Assembly: GCF_004010195.1 (NCBI RefSeq)
Contig: NC_057749.1
Location: forward strand, 17,067,750-17,131,749
Length of the DNA stretch: 64,000 bases
Direction of reading: 5' to 3'
Source of the DNA: Chiloscyllium plagiosum
Taxonomy: Eukaryota
The notes below the pieces were generated by a model. The model was not told where the DNA came from and did no database searches. It saw only the letters and a list, made by a program, of their open reading frames with translations. Positions 3,236-60,738 of this stretch are shown piece by piece (position 1 is the first letter of the stretch; every line of letters begins with the position of its first letter). The position numbers were made by a program, and so were the translations under genes.

Positions 3236-4509
3236 AGAATATTAACTCTGATTTCTCTCCACAGATGCTGCCAGACTTGCTGAGCTTTTCCAGCAATTTC
3301 TGTTTTTGTTTCTGCTTTACAGCATCCGTAGTTGATTTGTTTTTTATTCAGGAAGGAAGATACTGGCTTTGTGGATCCTTGACAGGGTTCACCCTGATAT
3401 TACTGGAGCTCTAAGTGTTAAATTAGGAGGACAGGTTGCACTGACTCGTATGTAGGAGATTAAGGCGGTATCTAATTGATGTCCTTTAAAGTGTTTAAAG
3501 GATTTGATGGGTCAGAGAGACAGAAACTACTTTCTGTAGCGGGGGAGAGTCTTGTTGAATGGTGGGGCTGAATGGCTTATTCAAGCTTCTTATTTTTACG
3601 TAAAAGCCACATGCTCGGGGTCAGAGAGGCAAGCCATCTTATCCTAAATCCAAAATCTCCATTGGCAGCACAGACTTGAGGACAGGAGGGAACACATGGA
3701 GGGTCAGAGGAGAGGGTATGGCAGTGTGGGGAAGTGGGTTATGGAGTTATTGTGTACCTTTGCTCCATATCAATAAGATCTGGTGCTTGACTTGGCCTCA
3801 CAAATGAACAAGGTCGGTAGATCATGCAGGAAGGATGAAAGAGTCTGCTTCATGCAGCATGCCTGCGAAACAAGCTACAGACTGAAACTTGTGGTTACGC
3901 TATAAGAGCAGGCCTCTGGATTGGGCAGAGTCTGACAGATTTGCAAAGGCGAGGCTGCCAAAAACCATCTTGTGAAAAGACAGACAGATTCAGCTTCGAG
4001 CCAGCCTGCACGTCACCCAGGCCGCTCCCAAATACCAACACCAGAGAAAGGTCTAATTTAGAACATAATAGAAATCCTGTTGTGGTTAAAACTGCAGAGA
4101 AGCTGTTCATTAACAAAGAGTAAAGGCACCATGAAACACTGAGAAGGTGGTGATAGTCTTCCACAGATTTGGCTGAATTTTCAGACACAATTTTGTTGGC
4201 CTAATCACCTCTTAAACACAAAATAAGGTTCCAGGCGTGTTACTAGTGACCAATTGCATGCTCTCATTTCTGTAACAGCTCCACCTGGACGCACAGTGAT
4301 CTAATGTCGAAGAATGAAAGAGCTTGCACCTTGCACAGCTTCAGGAGGTTGCAAAGTGCTTCACAACTAATTGATTATTCTCACTAATGATCGTTGTTGT
4401 TGCAGGAAATGTAGCAGTCAATATGCACATTGGTAAGCATGCACAGCTCTGAATCAGAGCACCAGGCATACAAGTCTCACTGCAGAGAGCACAACATCTC
4501 AGTGGGCAG

Positions 4510-5065
4510 AGGGTCTGCACTGAGACAGTGCCCCACTGTCAGAGGGTCAGTACTGAAGAAGCAGGCACTGTCAGAGGGTCAGAGCTGAGGGAGTGCCACA
4601 CTGTTGGACGGTCAGTGCTGAGGGAGCGCCACACTGTCGGAGGATCAGTGCTGAGGGAGCGCCACACTGTCAGAGGGTCAGTGCTGAGGGAGCGCCACAC
4701 TGTCAGAGGGTCAGTGCTGAGGGAGCGCCACTCTGTCGGCGGGTCAGCATTGAGAGAGCGCTACACTGTTGGAGGGTCAGTGCTAAGGGAGTGCCGCACT
4801 GTCAGAGGGTCAGTGCTGAGGGAGCACCACTCTGTCGGAGGGTCAGAGCTGAGGGAGTGCCACACTGTTGGACGGTCAGTGCTGAGGGAGCAGGCTTGTC
4901 AGTGGGTCAGCACTAAGAGAGTGCCACACTGTCGGAGGGTCAGCACTGAGGAGGTGCTGCACTGTTGGAGGGTCAGCATTGAGGGAGCGCTACACTGTTG
5001 GAGGGTCAGTGCTGAGGGAGTGCCACACTGTCAGAGGGTCAGTGCTGAGGGAGCGCCGCACTGTG
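4510..5065 (+). repeat. 33-bp minisatellite (gagggtcagtgctgagggagtgccacactgtca), ~16-17 units
   Basis: Direct tandem repetition; the ORFs show an 11-aa period. Confidence 0.95.
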
Positions 5066-5096
5066 GTGCCCCTTTGCAATTAACCATTAAAACTGT

Positions 5097-5594
5097 CTGG
5101 AACACATGCACCAAACAGCCCCATCACCTTGTGGCCGACCACTTCAACTTCCCCCTGCCACTCTCCCAAGGACAAGTAAATTCAAAGTTTGGGACAAGTA
5201 AGTCCTGGGCCCCCTCTACTACCGAATCCAAGCCATCCGACAACTGGAGGAAAAACACCTCATCTTGTGCCTCTTGACCCTCCAACCACATTTTATCAAT
5301 GTCAATTTCACCAGTTTCCTCCCCTCCCCCACCTCATCCCAGACCTAACCCTCCAAATCAGCACTACCCTCTTGACCTGTCCTATCTGTCCACTTTCCTT
5401 CGCACCCATCCACTCAACTTTCACCCCCCACCTGCATCTACCTATCGCCTTCCCAGCTACCTTCCCCCAGCCCCACCCCCACCCTCCTTCCCTCCCCACA
5501 TTGCTGATGAAGGGCCTAAGCCTGAAACGTTGACTTTTCTGCTCCCCAGATGCTGCCTGACCTGCTGTGCTTTTCCAGTGCCACACTTTGACAC
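5097..5594 (+). mobile_element. Penelope-like element 3' fragment (family A) with hammerhead motif
   Basis: Translates to a 'HLVADHFN' endonuclease C-terminal-like motif, then a C-rich tract, ctgatgaagggcctaagcctgaaacgtt (5504-5531) and the family tail gatgctgcctgacctgctgtgcttttccag. Confidence 0.7.
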
Positions 5595-11104: not shown

Positions 11105-11906
11105 TTAGTGAATGAAGGGACTCAGTTATTCTGGAAGGTGGATACCTTTCCAGCAGAGAAATCAGCAACTGCAAGATTGCTGGACACGTAGCAGCCTTGT
11201 ATTTTACAGAAGGGTTTTGTGGGGATGGCTGGGTGCAGGGACAGTGATGTGAAGGCCATGACGGTATTAATGAATGCAGTGGGTGGGAGGGAAAAGAGGA
11301 GTGTGACTGTGATCAGGAAGCCAGACAGTTGGTGTACGAAGCCTGTGAGAAGTGACCCTGATGACTGACAGGGATCGGTATGGGGGTGCTGGGCAGCTGA
11401 AGGTGTAATGGAGTTGGGGAAGAGTTCTTCTTGGAAACAACTGCTTCTCTTGAGCCAGAGGAGATGGTCAGTGTGTGAGCACCCAGATGGCCCTCTCCTG
11501 GCCAGTCAGCTCTTGTTGCTGCAGTGTTCAGGACACAGTTCACCTGCTCTCATGGTCATTCTCCTCTCTGTACATGTCAGCAGAATCTGCAGTGAGCATC
11601 CCACTGGTTTCTAATTTGTACAAGACTCTGTTATTCAATCAGCATTCCCCAACCCAGTCTGATGCTGACCGTGAACTGAGAGGAGCCTCAGCTGCTCAGA
11701 AACCACCAGCAAAGCAGAAAAAAAAAATCAGACAGGGAAATCTCAAAATGTTATCTGACAGACAAGAACATGTAATTTACAACCACACCCTGAAGACAGT
11801 AACTCAAGGTGCTTCATGGCAGTGAGAAACAAAGACAATTGGACACAGCTATATAACGAGAGATGAGGAGGTGTGACTAAAAGCTGAGATGAAGATTTTA
11901 AGCTGC

Positions 11907-12197
11907 CTTCTTGACCTGCAATCTTCTTCCCGACCTCTCCGCCCCCACCCCCACTCCGGCCTATCACCCTCACCTTAACCTCTTTCCACCTATCGCATTC
12001 CCAACGCCCCTCCCCCAAGTCCCTCCTCCCTACCTTTTATCTTAGCCTGCTTGGCACACCTTCCTCATTCCTGAAGAAGGGCTTATGCACGAAACGTCGA
12101 TTCTCCTGCGCCTTGGATGCTGCCTGACCTGCTGCGCTTTTCCAGCAACACATTTTTCAGCTCTGATCTCCAGCATCTGCAGTCCTCACTTTCTCCC
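11907..12197 (+). mobile_element. PLE-derived repeat (family A) with hammerhead motif
   Basis: attc-CTGAAGA-A-GGGC-ttat-GCAC-GAAA-CG-TC-gatt at 12067-12102, followed by the full family tail ending ctgcagtcctcactttctcc. Confidence 0.75.
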
Positions 12198-14804: not shown

Positions 14805-15945
14805 CAAATGAAGAATGTCCATTTTTATAGTGTCTTTCACACCTCATGGGGTCCTAAAGCAGCTTAAAACAATGAGTAACTTTTTAGAAATGTCGTCACC
14901 ATTCAAATGTAGGAAGCACAGAAGACAATTTCTGCACAGCACAATGCATCAACAGTGTAGATGTGAGATTGTTATTTTCAAACAACACAAAACCTCAGTT
15001 CTGCATTGCATCAGAAACAGTGCTCCCGTGGCACTGATCCTCCAATCCGACAGTGCGACGCTCTCTCAGTGCTGACCCTCTGACAGTGCAGCACTCCCTC
15101 AGCACTGACCCTCCGATAGCACGGCAACTCCCTCAGTGCTGACCCTCCGACAGCGCGACACACCCTCAGTGCTGACCCTCCGACAGCATGGCAACCCCCA
15201 CAGTGCTGACTCTCTGACAGTGCGGCACTCCCTCAGCGCTGACCCTCTGACAGCGCGACACACCCTCAGTGCTGACCCTCCGACAGCGCGGCACTCCCTC
15301 AGCGCTGACCCTCCGATAGCACGGCAGCTCCCTCAGTGCTGACCCTCTGACAGTGCGGCACCCCCTCAGCACTGACCCTCTGACAGCGCGACACTCCCTC
15401 AGCGCTGGCCCTCCGATAGCAAGGCAACCCCCTCAGTGCTGACCCTCTGACAGTGTGGCACCCCCTCAGCACTGACCCTCTGGACAGTGCGGCACTCCCT
15501 CAACGCTGACCCTCTGAGAGTGCAGCACTCCCTCAGCACTGACTCTCTGACAGAGCAGCACTCCTTGAGCACTGACCCTCTGACAGAGCAGCACTCCTTG
15601 AGCACTGACCCTCTGACAGTGTGGCACTCCCTCTGCACTGACCCTCTGACAGTGCGGCACTCCCTCAGTGCTGACCCTCTGACAGTGCAGCACTCCCTCA
15701 GTGCTGACCCTCTGACAGTGCGGCACTCCCTCAGTGCTGATCCTCTGACAGTGCAGCACTTCCTCAGTGCTGACCCTTTGACAGTGCGGCACTCCGAGTG
15801 CCGACCCTCTGACAATGCGGCACTCCCTCAGCGCTGCACTATCGTTAGGAGTGCCAGGCTTCATTTTCTGATCAAGTCTCTGAGGTGTGTCTTGAAATCC
15901 TGACCTTCTGATTTGAAGTGCAAGTTACCCACTGAGCCATAGCAA
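14805..15945 (-). mobile_element. DeuSINE copy with internal 33-bp array
   Basis: Minus-strand tRNA-like head (gctatggctcagtgggtaac...) at ~15890-15943 and SINE tail at ~14810-14970 flank the array. Confidence 0.6.
15045..15840 (-). repeat. 33-bp minisatellite, ~24 units
   Basis: Repeated ctgaccctctgacagtgcggcactccctcagtg, the reverse complement of the 4510-5065 unit. Confidence 0.95.
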
Positions 15946-17309: not shown

Positions 17310-17925
17310 TCATAGAGTCATATGCAGAGTCATTCAGCACAGGCACAGACCCTTTGGTCCAACCAGTCCATGCCAATCACAATTCCAACCTAAACTAGTC
17401 CCACCTGCCTGTGCTTGGCCCATATCCCTCCAAATATTTCTTATTCATGTACTTATGCAAATACCTTGTAAATGTTGTAATCCACATCCACCACTTCCTC
17501 TGGAAGTTCATTCCACTGTGTAAAAGAAGTTGCCGCTCATGTCCTTGTAAAATTTTGTCTCCTCTCACTTTAAAAATATCCCGCTTAGTCTTGAAGTCTC
17601 CCACCTTAGGGAATAGACACCTGCCATTCATCTTATCTATATCCCGCATTATTTTATAAACCTCTCTAAGGTCAGCCCTCAAACTTCTATGCTCCAGTAA
17701 AACCAGTCCTAGCCTATCCAGTGTCTCCCTATAACTCAAACCCTCCATTCTCAGCAATAACCTGAAGAAGGGCATGTGCCCGAAACGTCGAATCTTCTGT
17801 TCCCTAGATGCTGCCTGACCTGCTGTGCTGTTCCAGCAATAAAGTTTCAGCAATAACCTGGTAAATCCCTTCTGAACCCTCTCCAGTTTAGTAATATCCT
17901 TCCTATAACAGGGTGACCAAAACAC
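17310..17925 (-). mobile_element. CR1 3' fragment interrupted by a PLE mini-insertion
   Basis: ORF gives FWSPCYRKDITKLERVQK and LRADLREVYKIM. Confidence 0.9.
17751..17860 (+). mobile_element. Mini PLE-derived insertion with hammerhead core and 14-bp TSD
   Basis: tcagcaataacctg at 17751-17764 and 17847-17860 flanks CTGAAGA-A-GGGC-atgt-GCCC-GAAA-CG-TC-gaat plus tail. Confidence 0.8.
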
Positions 17926-21148: not shown

Positions 21149-21409
21149 AGGCCCAGTAAGTTGAAGGCAAGGTAGCTTAGTTGCCACTCTCCAATAGTTC
21201 ACTATTTCAATGGTACTCATGATGCCAGGCCCCTAAACGAACAAGGGACACTCAAGTGAAGGGACTAGATATCTGTGGAAGGCAACATCTTTAGGAGAGA
21301 TTAGTATGGATACGCTGGAATGTGAAATCACACGGGGTTGCTGGAATATCTGAAAATCTTTATCCTACTTTCCATCTTTTCACATGTCCTTGCCTGTGCA
21401 GGAGAAATG

Positions 21410-21598
21410 ACTTGAAAAGTGTGGTGCTGGAAAAGCACAGCAGGTCAGGCAGCATCTGAGGAGCAGGAGGATCGACATTTCAGGCATAAGCTCTTCATCA
21501 GGAATGTTGGGGGTGGAGAGAGGGGGGTGAGACAAATAGGAGTGTGAGGTTGGGGCTGGGGGTTGGGGGGAAGGTAGCTGGGAAGGTGATAGGTGCAA
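21410..21598 (-). mobile_element. PLE-derived repeat (family A) with decayed hammerhead
   Basis: Minus strand reads attcCTGATGAagagcttatgcctGAAAtgTCgatc at 21470-21505. Confidence 0.7.
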
Positions 21599-22494: not shown

Positions 22495-22594
22495 CGCTTT
22501 GCTTCCTCCAGGTGACAAAGGTATTCGTATGCAATGTTCTGCCGTCTCCGCTCATCCATCTCCTCAGCTGTAAGACGTTCATTATCCAAAACAG
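22495..22594 (-). CDS. IQGAP1: IQGAP1 coding exon 2
   Basis: 100-bp exon, ttttacag|CT...AAGCG|gtaagt, encoding (S)VLDNERLTAEEMDERRRQNIAYEYLCHLEEAK(R). Near identical to the vertebrate IQGAP1 N-terminus. Confidence 0.96.
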
Positions 22595-23835: not shown

Positions 23836-24284
23836 GTAAACAGATGCTGAAAATCTGAAATAAACACAGAGTGCTGGAGAAACTCAGCAGAACTGGCAGC
23901 ATCTGTAGAGGCAAACACAGAGTTAGTGTTGAGTCCAATGACCCTTTGTCAAAACTGGTAAGTCTCTTAACTCTGTTGTCACTTTGTATGTTTTTCAAAA
24001 ACTTTCTCCAGTGATTGAACAATGGCAGGAACAGTTTACTGGTATAATAGAAAAGGCAATGTGGTCCAAATTGGCCTGTGAAGGTCTCCCCATCTTGTTT
24101 CAGACCCACCAGAAAGTACTAGAAAGTTCCCACTGCCTTTTTAAAAGTAGCTCACTGTAAGCCTGGTGAAAACAAATACATACTGTGACAATTTAGTTCC
24201 TTTCACGTATAATATTAGCATGAATGCAGTTTTTCTACTCTACATGAAGGGCAGTAAATCCAAAAAGCAAAGGAAACACATAAT

Positions 24285-25244
24285 AAAACAGGAGATTAGC
24301 GAGTTTTGAGAAGAGTTGTAGCTCAGGTTGAGGTTCTGGATGTAGGTTTGCTCGCTGAGCTGGAAGCTTTGTTTTCTGACATTTCGTCACTATACTAGGT
24401 AACATCTTCGGTAAGCCTCTGAATGATGGTGTAGCTCGCTTTCTATTTATATGTTTAAATTTCCTAGGGTTGGCAATACCATGTCCTGTGGTGACATCAT
24501 TTCCTATGGTGATGTCATTTCCTGTTCTTTTTCTCAGGAGGTGGTAAATGTGATCCAAGTCAATGTGTTTGTTGATAGAGTTCTGGTTGGAATGCCATGC
24601 TTCTAGGAATTCTCCTACATGTTTGGCTTGTCCCAGGGTGGATGTGTTGTCCCAGTCGAAGTGGTGTCCTACCACCAACACATCAACAGCAGCTAATGAA
24701 TTTGAAACAGCTTATACAGATAACAAGCAAAACTAATGTAATTTACAAAATACTTTGCAAGAACTGTAACAAACACTACATTGGACAAACAGGCAGAAAA
24801 TCAGCCACCAAGATAATTGAACATCAACTAGCCACAAAAAGACATGACCCACTCTCACTAGTATCCTCACATACGGATTTGGAAGGACATCATTTTGACT
24901 GGGACAACACATCCATCCTAGGACAAGCCAAACAGAGATACTCACAACAATTCCTAGAAACATGACATTCCAGATGGAACTCTATCAACAAACACATTGA
25001 CTTGGATCACATTTACCATCCTCTGAGAAAAAGAACGAGAAATGACATCACCATAGGAAATGATGTCGCCACAGGAAATGACATCACCAACCATAGGAGA
25101 CTTAAACATATAAATAGAAAGTGGGATACAGCACCAGTGCTTCATTCGGAGGCTCACTGAAGACGTTACCTAGTAGGATGACAAAACATCTGAAAAACAA
25201 ACCTTCTAGCTCAGCGAGCAAATCCACATCCAAAATAGGAGATT
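24285..25244. mobile_element. Penelope-like element (family B), GIY-YIG fragment with inverted 3' duplication and 13-bp TSD
   Basis: Plus arm encodes NVIYKILCKNCNKHYIGQTGRK (GIY-YIG) and HHFDWDNTSILGQAK. 24298-24670 is a minus-strand copy of the 3' end. TSD aaaa(c/t)aggagatt at 24285-24297 and 25232-25244. Confidence 0.85.
25154..25193 (+). ncRNA. Decayed minimal hammerhead ribozyme motif (PLE family B)
   Basis: tca-CTGAAGA-c-GTTACC-tagtag-GATGAC-aAAA-ca-TC-tga, with CpG-type changes relative to the 33205-33244 copy. Confidence 0.55.
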
Positions 25245-32756: not shown

Positions 32757-33296
32757 GAAACTACTGGATTAGCGAGTTTTGCGAAGGTTTGTAGCTCAGG
32801 TTGCAGTTCTGGATATGGGTTTGCTCACTTGAGCTGGAAGGTTTATTTTCAGACACTTCATCTCCATACTATTTCAGGGAGCTTCTGAATGAAGCACTGG
32901 TGGAATAGCCTGCTTTCTATTTATATGTTTGAGTTTCCTTGCATTGGTGACATCATTTCCTGTTTCTTTTCCTCAGAGAGTGGTAAATGTCAATCCAAGT
33001 CAATGTGTTTGTTGAGCGCGTTTCAGTTGGCATGCCATGCTTCTAGGAATTCTCATGCGTGTCTCATTGTCATTATTATGGTGCTTGTCTTAGGATGGAT
33101 GTGTTGTCCCAGTCAAAGTCGTGTCCTTCCTCATCCGTTTGTAAGGATACTAGTGACAGTATAAATAGAAAGCAGGCTACACCTCCAGTGCTTCATTCAG
33201 AGGCTCGGTGAAGATGTTAGCTAGTATGGTGACGAAACGTCTGAAAATGAACCTTCCAGCTCAGCGAGCAAACCTACATCCAGAAACTACTGGATT
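32757..33296. mobile_element. PLE family B fold-back insertion with exact 14-bp TSD, nested in a SINE
   Basis: gaaactactggatt at 32757-32770 and 33283-33296; minus arm ~32771-33158 and plus arm ~33160-33282. Confidence 0.85.
33205..33244 (+). ncRNA. Minimal hammerhead ribozyme motif (PLE family B)
   Basis: tcg-gTGAAGA-t-GTTAGC-tagtat-GGTGAC-GAAA-CG-TC-tga; C3 is mutated. Confidence 0.6.
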
Positions 33297-40117: not shown

Positions 40118-40753
40118 TCATTTCTTTGAAAGCTGCTCGATCAGTTTTTTCCAGCTAACTCTCTTCTGGGTGATATAGACTGGGGTGACAACCATGACCG
40201 GTGGCCTGTGGTCCTTCCTGAGGTATTGCTCGCAAAGAGCCTCTGTAGTGCACATCACATACATCCCACAATCATAGCTGTTCTTTTGAACTGGTGATGA
40301 ATCCTCAATGAAAGGCACTTCAGATTTGGTTCCCAGAAAGTGTTGCAGCTTCTTCGCTATCTTTCGGGCATGGCTTTCATTCATGTTGCTGCAGGAATCA
40401 TAGTGGCTGAAACAGTTTCTATCTCTGTTGTAACATAGCAAGCTCCAATGAGACCCACCAGCCGCCTGCACAGAGTTGTCATTGACTGCAAGGAAGACCA
40501 AGCTTTTCTGTGCCAGTGCTAGTGGCTCCAGGAAGATTGCCAACTCGTCCTGGCTGGCCATGCATTTAATAAGCTGAGTAACTTGAGGGCTGATGAAGCA
40601 GGCTCTGTCTGAGAGTTCCTTGTACTGTTCAGCGGCAAAGTATTCAAAGGCAAATGCAATGATGTGGTCATTGAGCCAGTTGGGTGGGTTGAGGAGTGAC
40701 AGATCTGAGCGTCGGATTAAGCTGTCATGGTAGCTCAGTATTACTGGGTCCAT
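40118..40753 (-). CDS. SENP8: Sentrin-specific protease 8 (NEDD8-specific protease, NEDP1/DEN1), single coding exon, 211 aa
   Basis: MDPVILSYHDSL..WLNDHII..GGSHWSLL..HYDS..QKNSYDCGMYV with catalytic H102/D119/C162. Acceptor gtttgcag|GAGCAGCATG at 40760. Confidence 0.98.
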   Translation of the reverse strand: MDPVILSYHDSLIRRSDLSLLNPPNWLNDHIIAFAFEYFAAEQYKELSDRACFISPQVTQLIKCMASQDELAIFLEPLALAQKSLVFLAVNDNSVQAAGGSHWSLLCYNRDRNCFSHYDSCSNMNESHARKIAKKLQHFLGTKSEVPFIEDSSPVQKNSYDCGMYVMCTTEALCEQYLRKDHRPPVMVVTPVYITQKRVSWKKLIEQLSKK

Positions 40754-41264
40754 GCTGCTCCTGCAAACAAACGAGAAACTTCAGATACAAAAATAAAATT
40801 CTAGAGATGCTGGAAGTCTGAAATAAAAACAGAAAATGTTAGAACTACTCAACAGGTTTGCAGCATCTGTGGAGAGAGAAAAGAATTAATGTTTTAGGTC
40901 TATGACGTTTTGTCAGAACTGAGAAAAGTTAGAAATGTAATAAGTTTTGAGCACGTGAAGGGAGGAGGGGTGGAAGAAGAAGAAAAAGGAAAGTCTTTGA
41001 TAGACTGGCAATCAACAATGAGACTTCAGTGTTCTAATAGAGGAACAAGGCACCATTGGAGGTACTATCACAGATTGGTCCTGAAGATAAAGCCCTGTCC
41101 GGCTTCACAGATGAATGTAAAATATCTCATGGCACTATTCTGAAGTAGATTGGGGAGTTCTCCCTGTGTCCTGCTCAATATTGATCCCTTAAATGACATT
41201 ACCAAAACAGATTTTCTGATCAGATACGTCATTTCAGTTTAAGAGACTTTGCTCTATGGAAATT

Positions 41265-41971: not shown

Positions 41972-42226
41972 TACCATTTCTAAGCGTTTGGATTAGTGGT
42001 GCTGGAAGAGCACAGTAGTTCAGGCAGCATCCGAGGAGCAGCAAAATCGATGTTTTGGGCAAAAGCCCTTCATCAGGAAGGGCCTTTATTCCTGATGAAG
42101 GGCTTTTGCCCGAAATGTCGATTTTGCTGCTCCTCGAATGCTGCCTGAACTGCTGTGCTCTTCCAGCACCACTAATCCAAAATCTGGTTTCCAGCATCTG
42201 CAGTCATTGTTTTTACCACTTCTAAG
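41972..42226. mobile_element. Palindromic PLE-derived insertion (family A) with 93-bp arms and 13-bp TSD
   Basis: Arms 41987-42079 and 42089-42181 are inverted. TSD tacca(t/c)ttctaag at 41972-41984 and 42214-42226. Confidence 0.88.
42088..42123 (+). ncRNA. Minimal type I hammerhead ribozyme motif
   Basis: attc-CTGATGA-A-GGGC-tttt-GCCC-GAAA-tg-TC-gatt. Confidence 0.7.
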
Positions 42227-44419: not shown

Positions 44420-45332
44420 TAACTTTCTAACAGGAGCAACATTTCTTCCCACTGCAGTGACTGGCAGAAGCAAGAGTCTGACCCCCTGCAGTGGCTGACA
44501 GGGTCCAGAGCCCCATCTCCTGCAGTGACTGACAGAACCAAGTGACCCATCCCCTTCAATGACCAAGTGCCGCAGTGGGTGCAGCCACACAGCGCCTTGC
44601 TTTGAAAGGCCGACAGGACACAGACTTTCACTCTCTGCACAGATTGACAGGACCTAGAGACAATGATTGACAGACCAGGGTACACCACTGGCAGGGACTG
44701 ACATCGCCTCCTAGTGATTGACAGCCACATAACCCGCCCCAAACCATGATGGACAGCGTTCAGCCCACCCCTTGGTGATTGACAGACTTCGCCCTGCGCA
44801 ACGATGGACAGTCGTGCAGCCACACACACCCCTGTCTTGATCGACAGCCCCAGGGACTCCGCCTCCAGCAGAGAATCAAAGCACAATGACCCTCCCCCCC
44901 ACCCCGCGGTAACTGAACGCCAACTGCGTTGATTGACAGTCCCACGTCCCGCCTTCTGTAGTGATTGAGAACCTCACGCTCCGCCCGTTGCCGTGATTGG
45001 CACCACCCTGCTATGGCTAGTGCAGTGATTGACAGTCCAGTATCCCGCCTCCTGTTGTGATTGACAGCCCCATGTCCCGCCTTCTGCAGTGGTAGACAGC
45101 CCGTTGCCATGATTTACAACCCCATGGTCAGCCTACTGCAGTGATTAATGGCCTCGTACTCCACCCTTGACTCGATTGACAGCGCCATGCCCCGCCCTTT
45201 GTCGTGATTGATAGCTCATTTCCTGCCCACTAGTGATTGACAGTCCCACGTCCCGCCTCATATAGTGATTGACAGCCTCATTGTCGACCCACTATAGTGA
45301 CTGACAGCCCCAATCCCGTCGCGATTGATAGC
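44420..45332. repeat. Degenerate older part of the 32-bp array
   Basis: Recurring gtgattgacag...cccgcc units with indels, increasingly divergent leftward. Confidence 0.8.
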
Positions 45333-46369
45333 TCATGTCCCGCCTCCTGCAGTGATTGGCAGGCCCATGTCCCGCCTCCTGCAATGATTTACAGGTCCAT
45401 GTCCCGCCACCTGCAGTGATTGGCAGGCCCATGGCCCGCCTCCTGCAGTGATTGGCAGGCCCAAGTCCCGCCTCCTGCAGTGATTGGCAGGCACATGCCC
45501 CGCCTCCTGAAGTGATTTACAGGCCCATGTCCCGCCTCCTGCAGTGATTGGCAGGCCCATGCCCCGCCTCCTGCAGTGATTGGCAGGCCCATTTCCCGCC
45601 TCGTGCAGTGATTGGCAGGCCCATGCCCCGCCTCCTGCAGTGATTGGCAGGCCCATGCCCCGCCTCCTGCAGTGATTGGCAGGCCCATGTCCCGCCTCCT
45701 GCAGTGATTTACAGGCCCATGTCCCGCCTCCTGCAGTGATTGGCAGGCCCATGTCCCACCTCCTGCAGTGATTGGCAGGCCAGTGATTGGCAGGCCCATG
45801 TCCCACCTCCTGCAGTGATTGGCAGGCCCATGCCCCGCCTCCTGCAGTGATTGGCAGGCCCATTTCCCGCCTCGTGCAGTGATTGGCATGCCCATGCCCC
45901 GCCTCCTGCAGTGATTGGCAGGCCCATGCCCCGCCTCCTTCAGTGATTGGCATGCCCATGCCCCGCCTCCTGCAGTGATTGGCATGCCCATGCCCCGCCT
46001 CCTGCAGTGATTTACAGGCCCATGTCCCGCCTCCTGCAGTGATTGGCAGGCCCATGCCCCGCCTCCTGCAGTGATTGGCAGACACATGTCCCGCCTCGTG
46101 CAGCGATTTACAGGCCCATGCCCCGCCTCCTGCAGTGATTGGCAGGCCCATGCCCCGCCTCCTGCAGTGACTGGCAGGCCCATTTCCCGCCTCGTGCAGT
46201 GATTAGCAGGCCCATGTCCCGCCTCCTGCAGTGATTGGCAGGCCCATGTCCCGCCTCCTGCAGTGATTTACAGGCCAATGTCCCGCCTCCTGCAGTGATT
46301 GGCAGGCCCATGCCCCGCCTCCTGCAGTGATTGGCAGGCCCATGCCCCGCCTCCTGCAGTGATTGGCAG
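45333..46369. repeat. 32-bp minisatellite (cccatgccccgcctcctgcagtgattggcagg), ~32 units
   Basis: Direct repetition; the ORFs show a 32-aa (3-unit) period. Confidence 0.97.
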
Positions 46370-46515
46370 CCTTCGGGGCCGACAGCAGATATGATCCACT
46401 AGCCGGATCCCTAAGCCAACTGCCGCCGGGACGCCAGCCTGCACTAATTTTCCCATCAACCTCGTAGCCCCAATCTACAAAATGAGACACTTCAATCGAC
46501 GCCTGTCGATTTTAC

Positions 46516-47054: not shown

Positions 47055-47269
47055 GTAAGCCGCGATCGGGATCGAGTCCAAACCGCCCTCTCGCCTTCGC
47101 TCCCGCCCGCCCGCAATCTCTGCAGCTGTTAACGTCCCTGGCTCGTGCCCGCGCTCCCGGACAGAGCGCCGGGGACCCGCTTGCGCGCGAGCGTCCTGTC
47201 ACCATTTCCCGCACCCCCCCCCCCCCCCTCCTCCAGCCACACCCCATCGGCGGCGCCCCGTACCGAGAC

Positions 47270-48480
47270 ATCCCTGTGCCTGAGGGGGTGCTCCATGTAC
47301 CTGAGGGGGTGCTCCATGTACCCTGGGCTGTCCCTGTGTCTGAGGGGCTGCCCCCTGTACCTGAGGGGGTGCTCCATGTACCTTGGGCTGTCCCTGTGCC
47401 TGAGGGGGTGCTCCCTGTACCCTGGGCTGTCCCTGTGCCTGAGGGGATGCTCCATGTACCCTGGGCTGTCCCTGTGTCTGAGGGGGTGCTCCATGTACCC
47501 TGGGCTGTCCCCTGTACCTGAGGGGATGCTCCCTGTACCCTGGGCTGTCCCCTGTACCTGAGGGGATGCTCCCTGTACCCTGGGCTGTCCCTGTGCCTGA
47601 GGGGATGCTCCATGTACCCTGGGCTGTCCCTGTGCCTGAGGGGATGCTCCATGTACCCTGGGCTGTCCCTGTGCCTGAGGGGATGCTCCATGTACCCTGG
47701 GCTGTCCCTGTGCCTGAGGGGATGCTCCATGTACCCTGGGCTGTCCCTGTGCCTGAGGGGCTGCCCCCTGTGCCTAGGGGGTGCTCCATGTACCCTGGGC
47801 TGTCCCTGTGCCTGAGGGGGTGCTCCATGTACCCTGGGCTGTCCCTGTGCCTGAGGGGATGCTCCATGTACCCTGGGCTGTCCCTGTGCCTGAGGGGATG
47901 CTCCATGTACCCTGGGCTGTCCCTGTGCCTGAGGGGCTGCCCCCTGTGCCTGAGGGGGGTGCTCCATGTACCCTGGGCTGTCCCTGTGTCTGAGGGGCTG
48001 CCCCCTGTGCCTGAGGGGGTGCTCCCTATACCCTGGGCTGTCCCTGTGCCTGAGGGGGTGCTCCCTATACCCTGGGCTGTCCCTGTGCCTGAGGGGATGC
48101 TCCCTGTACCCTGGGATGCCCCTGTGCCTGAGGGGTTGCCCCTGTGCCTGAGGAGGTGCTCCCTGTACCCTGGAGTGTCCCTGTGCCTGAATAGGTGTTC
48201 CCTGTCCTCTGTACCCTGGGCATCCCTGTGCCTGAAGAGGTGTCCCTGTGCCTGAATGTGTGTACCCTGGGGCATCCCTGCCCTTGAAGGGGTGCCCCCA
48301 TACTCTGGGGCATCCCTGTGCCTGAAGGGATGCCCCCATACCCTGAGCATCCCTGTGCACCCCTGTACCCTGTGACCCAAAGGGCATCCCTGTATGCAAG
48401 GGTCTCATGTCGGAGGGTTGCCTTTGCCTGGAGGGGCAGCCAGTGTCTGGAAGGCTGTCCATGTGCCTGAGAAGTGCCAT
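47270..48480. repeat. 39-bp minisatellite (ccctgtgcctgaggggatgctccatgtaccctgggctgt) with ~21-bp sub-unit variants
   Basis: Direct repetition with a 13-aa period in ORFs; degenerates after ~48120. Confidence 0.96.
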
Positions 48481-55379: not shown

Positions 55380-56095
55380 AAAAAGCAAGCGTCTAAGTTT
55401 CATGGGCAATAGAGAAGGCAAATGGAATGTTGGCTTTTATTTCAAAGCGAATGATATATATATTCTTGATGAAGGCTTTTTGCCCAAAACATCCATTTTC
55501 CTGCTGCTCGGATGCTGCCTGACAACGTTGTGCTTTTCTAGCACCAATCTAATCTTGACTATAGTTTTGCTAGAGTTATAGAAGATTTTAGTTGGACCAC
55601 ACCTGGAATATGTAAACAGTTTTGTGCCCCTTTTCTAAGGCAAAATACACTGCCATTGGAAGCAGTCCAGTGAAGGTTCGTTAGTCTGATACTAGGTATG
55701 GAGGGACTGTCTTACCAGGAGAGATTGAATGGGCTGTATGTATTGGAATATAGAGAATGTGTGGGGTGGGGGAAGAAGGACCTTACTGAAACTTGTAAGA
55801 TCTTTAGTGAACTTGACAGACTAGATAGGGAAAGATTGTTTCCTCTTGTGGGGAAGTCGAGAACCAGAGGGCATGATCTCAATAAGGGATCGCACGTTTA
55901 TGATAGGGATGAGGAGGATTCAAGTATATTCAGGGCTGAGGTGGACAGATTTTTAATCAAGAAGGGAATCAAGGGTTATGCAGAAAAGACAGGAAAGTGG
56001 ATTTGAGTATTATCAGAATAGCCATGATCTCATTGAATGGAGTAGACCTGGAGGGCTGAATGGCCTACTTCTGTTCTTACATCCTATAGTCTTAT
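55380..56095 (+). mobile_element. CR1 3' fragment with a small family A PLE insertion at ~55462-55559
   Basis: CR1 motifs (MEGLSYQERL..) interrupted by attcttgatgaaggctttttgcccaaaacatcc...gatgctgcctgac. Confidence 0.78.
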
Positions 56096-56664: not shown

Positions 56665-56904
56665 TACAGATCCATTGAGCTGAAAATGTGTTGCTGGTAA
56701 AGCACAGCAGGTCAGTCAGCATCCAAGGAACAGGAGAATCGACGTTTCGGGCATAAGCCCTTCATCCTGATGAAGGGCTTATGCCGAAACGTCGATTCTC
56801 CTGTTCCTTGGATGCTTACTGACCTGCTGTGCTTTACCAGCAACACATTTTCAGCTCTGATCTCCAGCATCTGCAGACCTCACTTTCTCCTACAGATCCA
56901 TTGA
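56665..56904. mobile_element. Palindromic PLE-derived insertion (family A) with ~90-bp arms and exact 14-bp TSD
   Basis: Arms 56677-56766 and 56769-56857. TSD tacagatccattga at 56665-56678 and 56891-56904. Confidence 0.9.
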
Positions 56905-60385: not shown

Positions 60386-60738
60386 TCTGGATTAGTGGTG
60401 CTGGAAAAGCACAGCAGTTCAGGCAGCATCCGAGAAGCAGTAAAATTGACGTTTCGGGCAAAAGCCCTTCATCAGGAATAAAGGCAGACAGCCTGAAGCA
60501 TGCAGAGATAAGCTAGAGGTGGGTGGGGGTGGGGAGAAAGTAGCATAGAGTACTATAGGTGAGTGGGGAGGGGATAAAGGTGATAGGTCGGGGGTGGGGG
60601 GAGGGTGGAGTGGATAGGTGGAAAAGAAGGTAGGCAGGTAGGACAAGTCATGGAGACAGTGCTGAGGTGGAAGTTTGGAACTAGGGTGAGGTGGGGGAAG
60701 GGGAAATGAGGAAACTGCCTCTTTGACTCTATGTACTG
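60375..60738 (-). mobile_element. PLE-derived repeat (family A) inserted into the CR1 tail, 15-bp TSD
   Basis: TSD tgactctatgt(t/a)ctg at 60375-60389 and 60724-60738. Minus-strand attcCTGATGAAGGGCttttGCCCGAAACGTC at 60448-60479. Confidence 0.85.

Follow-up and report, generated by a model that had tools for sequence, protein, structure and literature searches.

Positions 42088-42123 of the 64,000-nucleotide stretch of Chiloscyllium plagiosum DNA analysed here (the window, part of a chromosome-scale contig in a genome of 3.56 Gb) carry a motif with the appearance of a minimal hammerhead ribozyme. It recurs nearby on both strands, which raises the question of what kind of element brought it there, whether such ribozymes cut RNA in the shark and whether the short repeats that bear them form a system of their own. 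With a probability of roughly 0.85, we consider these motifs to be minimal type I hammerheads located at the junction of pseudo-LTR (pLTR) and ORF in an RT/GIY-YIG Penelope-like element (PLE), likely of the Neptune clade, and the short copies in the window to be 5'-truncated, often inverted insertions that are likely dead and decaying neutrally. The hammerhead class itself has been in print since 2014.

Copies of the motif in the window

A sequence-only reading of the window had listed eight occurrences, and a motif was present at all eight intervals (8/8) on the strand given. Opposite-strand partner cores missing from that reading were found at 42051-42076 (-) and 56743-56768 (-), and the 42088 and 56763 copies are thus halves of palindromic insertions (Table 1). 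Five older related copies (3238, 23871, 39164, 40838 and 48626) were also picked up in the window by an HMM of the repeat. Chance is not the source of the motif, since this HMM gave 167 matches across 74 stretches of 10 kb taken at even spacing, as against none in a reversed control, and a strict minimal-hammerhead descriptor matched 27 times in these first 74 stretches and 0 times in each of five shuffles. The copies had been described as 'intact or decayed', of which the first term is too favourable. None of those in the window passes the strict descriptor, each having a broken core, stem II or stem I or a CpG-decayed position, and the 42088 hammerhead (C3 at 42092) is the sole one to pass if G-U is allowed in stem III. 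An Rfam scan of the window returned 15 weak matches, none to a hammerhead model. Self-comparison showed that copies share a block of ~90 or 128 nt from the motif onward, to which some add up to 300 nt of shared pyrimidine-rich sequence upstream. Target-site duplications flank the insertions at 42, 56.7, 17.7, 12 and 60.4 kb; none was found at 5.5, 21.4 and 55.4 kb.

Table 1. Hammerhead-bearing insertions and associated features of the window.
Feature	Position	Strand	Description
Old copy	5095..5587	+	GIY-YIG C-terminal remnant (5095-5172, 5277-5330), pyrimidine-rich 3' UTR, hammerhead 5500-5535, short end; supported by tblastn (E 5e-8) and by blastn
Young 5'-truncated copy	11905..12194	+	Hammerhead 12067-12102 (mismatch in stem II) preceded by 165 nt of pLTR; 3' end long (tailed); 97% to L010; 7-nt duplication
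Stub from hammerhead edge	17761..17851	+	Stem I 5' strand lost, short end; 14-nt duplication
Old copy	21397..21594	-	~90 nt of pLTR, hammerhead 21470-21505
Older related stub	23871..23951	-	Core reads as U3-A8 variant, decayed
Second Penelope family (B)	24334..25240		GIY-YIG remnant with no linker zinc finger visible; arms inverted; a decayed hammerhead of its own at either end
Inverted family-B insertion	32807..33285		Two decayed hammerheads
Host coding exon	40118..40763	-	Peptidase_C48 match; splice acceptor 40763
Head-to-head pair, loop-TTTT subfamily	41987..42217		Short left arm 41987-42079 (-); tailed right arm ~42085-42217 (+)
Partner hammerhead	42045..42080	-	Sense to host gene; G12>A and 16.2 G>A
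Minimal type I hammerhead	42088..42123	+	Stem I 42088-42091 with 42120-42123, C3 42092, stem II 42100-42111; antisense to host gene
Decayed stub from hammerhead edge	55461..55560	+	C3>U, G12>A
Head-to-head pair	56677..56890		Joined inside both cores; short arm -, tailed arm +; flanked by an exact duplication of 14 nt (56665, 56891)
Copy reaching last ORF codons	60385..60717	-	Hammerhead 60444-60479 (1.1 G>A)

The insertion at 41987-42217 is bracketed by an exact duplication, TTCTAAG, at 41978-41984 and 42220-42226. Its plus-strand hammerhead, predicted to cut between 42119 and 42120, has a single change, 15.2 C>U (CpG decay), and the sequence of its partner predicts a dead ribozyme. According to folding prediction, the 41987-42220 palindrome forms one long hairpin in which the probability of stem II is 0. 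Reads and contigs from other runs stop aligning at 42087-42088. The intronic location that had been proposed holds for this copy, since transcript contigs from three runs that carry the Peptidase_C48 exon leave the window at 40763; we take the host gene to be SENP8. Another exon, at ~22500-22580 (-), has a motif that we take to be IQGAP-type, the gene presumably being IQGAP1, and RasGAP_C exons lie on the same strand 70-80 kb before the window. One old related stub (40838-40916, -) lies ~50 nt upstream of the host exon splice acceptor, in sense orientation and in or beside the polypyrimidine tract. The window also contains minisatellites at 4500-5070 (33 nt), 15050-15840 (33 nt), 45200-46450 (32 nt) and 47250-48250 (39 nt), the last two flanking a CpG island at 46-47 kb.

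Ribozyme type and fold

The proposed assignment to minimal type I hammerheads with a 9.1 bulge and an ACGU palindrome proved correct. In the family majority, CUGANGA, GAAA and UH follow one another as in type I, together with stem II and the 9.1 base, and these features are kept in the 31 strict copies of the main family present in 1.098 Mb of genomic sequence, individual window copies being damaged. The palindromic 15.1-16.1 stretch (ACGU in the main family, AGCU in a family termed C) allows a dimer stem III and is paired in the predicted dimer fold, whereas in monomer folding stem II has a probability near 1 and stem I is weak (<0.1). A dimer result was obtained by Lunse et al. (2017), as relayed by a review (PMC6765202). 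Covariation gave a divided answer. Between families the fold is preserved with different stems in five family majorities, one with U3-A8 and one with AGCU, two of these being small older sets of 4 and 8 copies; within the main family covariation did not rise above shuffles, 33 to 332 of 500 of which reached the score of the 13 copies. In an older related family (L112, L113, L136, L151, L159 and, in the window, 23871-23951 (-)), U3-A8 replaces C3-G8 and stem I is a perfect 4-bp helix; a U3-A8 variant has been reported in Schistosoma (PMC4209133).

The parent element and its abundance

A Penelope-derived origin had been suggested from the window, and genomic copies do run into an RT/GIY-YIG ORF, continuing upstream via a 3' UTR into the GIY-YIG domain and RT and downstream, past the tail, into the ORF start. 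Three of six extended loci (L062-L064), full-length though decayed, preserve a pLTR-ORF-pLTR arrangement with the second pLTR 3 kb on; in these decayed copies the ORF probably starts ~165 nt after the core. A single ORF combining RT with GIY-YIG (CCHH) at its C terminus between pLTRs was seen in decayed L062-L064, L066 and L005. RT motifs are accompanied by an RVT_1 match at E 2e-4, which is below the curated cut-off, and a Pfam search of the endonuclease pieces gave no match; these pieces show a CX3CxxC linker and the CCHH GIY-YIG pattern (L005 translation). As a CX2-5CxxC linker is absent from Penelope/Poseidon (PMC8557442), its presence excludes these two clades and, together with the C-terminal endonuclease, points to Neptune, to which the parent element probably belongs to judge by these motifs. 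At L004:1615-1665, a polypyrimidine tract followed by AG marks the place where the long 3' end stops, ~35 nt before the likely start codon, and resembles a splice acceptor; neither a splice donor nor a spliced read was found. Many copies among L031-L060 begin at the ribozyme edge, extend 100-550 nt into the ORF and then stop, as 3'-truncated leaders.

The family is as abundant as had been supposed. A sample of 114 stretches of 10 kb, taken at even spacing from 49 large contigs (1.098 Mb once N is excluded, small unplaced contigs being left out), contained 186 matches to the main family, 135 of them over the core, or ~123 copies per Mb (bootstrap 97-150), which would amount to an estimated ~4.4e5 copies genome-wide if the sampled density holds. 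Related or other families contributed a further 85 matches (50 of them over the core), 50 copies and 28 copies. The strict descriptor found 41 motifs in the 1.098 Mb, 31 of the main family, which extrapolates to ~1.3e5 (0.94-1.74e5) strict motifs genome-wide. Family B (24334-25240, 32807-33285), which had escaped the sequence-only reading, has a Poseidon-like endonuclease remnant and hammerheads with a 6-bp stem II. Family C (L074, L092, L097, L109, L128, L162, L175), with the AGCU palindrome, a predicted cut after UA and ~45 copies per Mb, yielded no parent ORF.

Insertion anatomy

The insertions have the anatomy of EN+ PLEs, namely an inverted truncated partner, a 30-40 nt tail at one end and a target-site duplication. 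The 3' ends are bimodal, with two preferred positions ~35 nt apart. Among 172 scorable copies, 78 sit in 39 reciprocal head-to-head pairs (chance 0.06 per copy), of which 31 combine a long end with a short one, and 26 are flanked by an exact duplication of 7-17 nt, compared with 12 of 195 mismatched flank pairs. RT/EN remnants lie upstream on the same strand within 2.5 kb in 28 of the 172 copies, at least five of these being due to a neighbour.

5' ends and the start of the RNA

Counting from C3 as +1, 43 of 165 5' ends fall at -3..+1, the five bases at the 5' edge of the ribozyme; 11 others lie in -63..-14, six at +26..+32 around the cut and 35 beyond -60. The 88 copies ending at -10..+14 comprise 44 joined to their inverted partner and 44 joined to unrelated DNA. 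That ends lie upstream of the cut and few lie at it indicates that the template was usually uncut. A splice origin of the pile-up was ruled out, there being no common leader.

We propose that the element protein would begin reverse transcription at internal sites of the RNA, 90 or 128 nt downstream from the core, as the anole element has been shown to do in vitro, that RT would most often copy through the uncut ribozyme and run off the RNA 5' end, presumably placed a few bases before stem I on its upstream side, and that the cDNA end might then fold back to produce the palindromes. Run-off from a capped start at that place is the explanation of the pile-up that we favour, with a little better than even confidence, over RT stalling or folding back at the ribozyme structure, or self-priming on an antisense template, none of which involves a transcript start and which together make a credible, if lesser, contender. 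Stem II is very stable, half of the pile-up copies (44/88) are joined straight to an inverted partner, and self-priming has been proposed for Penelope palindromes (PMC3846280), all of which would suit these rivals. However, the other 44 show the same edge with unrelated flanks, and the peak, whose upstream edge is sharp, lies beyond stem II and upstream of the core. The first untemplated base, for which a cap would predict G, speaks on both sides, being G in 21 of 38 search-selected young junctions (p 4e-4), an excess that argues against stalling, but in only 3 of 16 junctions of the even sample (p 0.87). A start at the ribozyme is not a general rule, since in family C the pile-up of 5' ends is found around -90 to -100 in addition to the core; in Drosophila virilis, the transcript starts well upstream of the ribozyme (PMC2377424, PMC4209133). 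One raw RNA run showed no pile-up of starts or ends and no GT-AG joint; its reads fell on the ribozyme-plus-tail only, on both strands, with 95% running into unlike sequence. A second run gave no aligned reads.

U6 fusions at the predicted cut

A different kind of 5' end is found in fusions to U6. Two of the 30 U6 loci examined (of 48 listed) join the tail of the main family, both at G1.1, and a pattern search allowing 0-4 extra bases gave three matches, of which one was a true fusion, exact at G1.1. Four more insertions (C31, C11, C1, C3) were retrieved solely with one junction as query, a choice that favours the same register. All seven fusions (7/7) read five T and then G1.1, which is exactly the scissile bond, and their flanks belong to several variants. 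Before G1.1 the element has GTC, so there is no microhomology at the junctions. Whether mature U6 was ligated to a 5'-OH end or RT jumped from a cut end, a cut is needed, and it is likely, on the indirect evidence of these junctions, that the ribozyme of the parent element cuts in living cells. There is a good chance that cutting after GUC would affect a small minority of source RNAs, probably as dimers or with protein help; the resulting 5'-OH end would be linked to mature U6 before being copied into DNA.

Junctions arising without ribozyme cleavage, from a protein nuclease or an RT pause at that base, appear unlikely to us. U6/LINE-1 fusions do form at ends from other processing (PMC6789731), and the ascertainment of the fusions was partial; yet the cut site (+29) is the start of just 1 of 165 ordinary copies as against 7/7 fusions, and the three fusions found without the junction query are equally exact.

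Two of 23 very young copies (the central copies of L229 and L235) start no more than one base from the cut, right after the target duplication and without U6, and were possibly copied from cut RNA. Other U6 copies (L199, L203, L188, L190 and others among L181-L210) are fused to various partners with T runs of variable length. We take these partners to be the Penelope endonuclease region, a tRNA-like sequence, a LINE and SINEs.

Short copies and the question of a separate family

The short repeats had been thought to form a probably non-autonomous system, a view that the genomic copies do not sustain. It would speak for a self-propagating family (SINE-, MITE- or retrozyme-like) borrowing the Penelope protein that most copies are short, carry no more than the cis sequence required and have their own duplications; moreover, solo pLTRs work in trans in rotifers (PMC3846280), and it has been argued that retrozymes come from pLTRs (bioRxiv 10.64898/2026.07.22.740005). 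Nevertheless, each loop-II subfamily has RT/endonuclease-bearing members, and no fixed 5' end or leader of their own was found for the short copies, their 5' ends being continuous, 0 of 44 short non-inverted copies sharing a 5' flank and the inversion centres being variable. Head-to-tail tandem hammerhead units are absent from the window, and the 135 core copies of the sample include just nine same-strand neighbours at <1 kb, irregularly spaced. The palindromes, finally, fold into a hairpin that hides the ribozyme, and the anatomy is standard for Penelope. The ORF-bearing members of all loop-II types, the lack of a shared 5' flank and the rare, irregular same-strand neighbours lead us to regard the short copies as products of the full element, and a separate family as quite improbable.

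Selection and decay

Whether the core is conserved in excess of its flanks was assessed on 37 copies (43 minus 6 inverted) picked by the UTR upstream, a choice in which the core played no part; 27 fall in clusters of three or more, giving four subfamily majorities. Excess conservation is found between source lineages and not after insertion. Between the four majorities, 1 of 23 hammerhead columns varies as against 30 of 76 flank columns (p 8e-4), whereas within subfamilies non-CpG changes affect 5/267 core (1.9%) and 46/1203 flank positions (3.8%, p 0.14), the figure for all constrained columns being 10/486 (p 0.07). CpG positions including G12 decay like flanks (14/105 vs 3/27, p 1). A first core-versus-flank test (8/585 vs 167/2785) was discarded, being biased by the choice of 5'-aligning copies and by lumped subfamilies. 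Selection thus acted on active elements, and none is detectable after insertion, although power is modest and the core trends lower; with post-insertion conservation not significant, intronic copies are best read as dead by-products. That they act as ribozymes on host pre-mRNA is very improbable: one copy in the window would be intact but for a single wobble, and an estimated 1.3e5 strict motifs exist genome-wide, but the near-intact 42088 copy runs antisense to its host gene, the partner in sense carries G12>A, the pair folds as one hairpin with a stem II probability of 0, and the core does not decay significantly more slowly after insertion.

Comparison with known systems

The closest precedent is the description of PLE hammerheads by Cervera and De la Pena (2014; PMC4209133), also of type I, with a base between 9 and 10.1, G10.1-C11.1, a palindromic 15.2-16.2 and a short stem I, and present mostly as single motifs from truncated elements, with opposite-strand pairs, several families per genome and a U3-A8 variant. 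Fish Xena, Poseidon and Neptune elements carry such hammerheads (PMC4209133). However, stem II of the main family has only 4 bp, and in that account the top vertebrate counts are ~4,000 (coelacanth) and 9,000 (Xenopus) against ~1.3e5 strict motifs here, a figure that is extrapolated and based on a different descriptor. The part of that account compared contains no cartilaginous fish, and the paper gives no evidence of cleavage in vivo.

In the Anolis Poseidon element PAc (Frangieh et al. 2024; PMC11167929), the ribozyme likewise lies at the pLTR/ORF junction, uncut RNA is the main template and cleavage in vitro is protein-assisted; its two downstream internal RT start sites, which define the tail, are matched by the two 3' ends found here. 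PAc belongs to another clade without a linker zinc finger, and its ORF starts in stem II rather than, as is probable here, ~165 nt downstream. No reads ending at the cut were found for PAc, whereas U6 fusions mark it here, and a 5'-end pile-up is not described in the part of that account compared. The anatomy agrees with that of canonical EN+ PLEs (Craig et al. 2021, PMC8557442; Arkhipova et al. 2013, PMC3846280) in 5' truncation, an adjacent inverted truncated copy, a 30-40 nt tail, a variable duplication and palindromic junctions; the excerpts of these accounts do not mention that 5' ends concentrate at the edge of the ribozyme. The U6/LINE-1 chimeras that RtcB produces by ligation (Moldovan et al. 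2019, PMC6789731) similarly consist of U6 ending in five U and a cyclic phosphate, attached to retroelement RNA with a 5'-OH and then retrotransposed, but there the partner end is variable, whereas here it is fixed at the scissile bond of the ribozyme. Non-LTR retrozymes (bioRxiv 10.64898/2026.07.22.740005) share the type I hammerhead and PLE origin, and have been found in one chondrichthyan; they are head-to-tail tandem units, in contrast to the dispersed singles or head-to-head pairs seen here, and a retrozyme identity is not supported, tandem hammerhead units being absent from the window and same-strand neighbours rare and irregular.

Within the literature covered (subscription journals, Repbase/Dfam entries and supplements being outside its scope), no shark Penelope hammerhead study or U6-Penelope fusion was found. 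What goes beyond print, as far as sources other than supplements and repeat databases are concerned, is the copy scale (~4.4e5), the 5'-end pile-up and the U6 fusions. Taken together, they may make this genome a fossil record of the Penelope life cycle, in which strong-stop copies, numbering hundreds of thousands, would map the RNA start to the 5' edge of the ribozyme and the U6 fusions would be evidence that minimal Penelope hammerheads cut in an animal germ line and yield ligatable 5'-OH ends, a proposition to which we give an even chance. If true, it would amount to cutting in vivo, which is unshown in the excerpts of the papers compared here.
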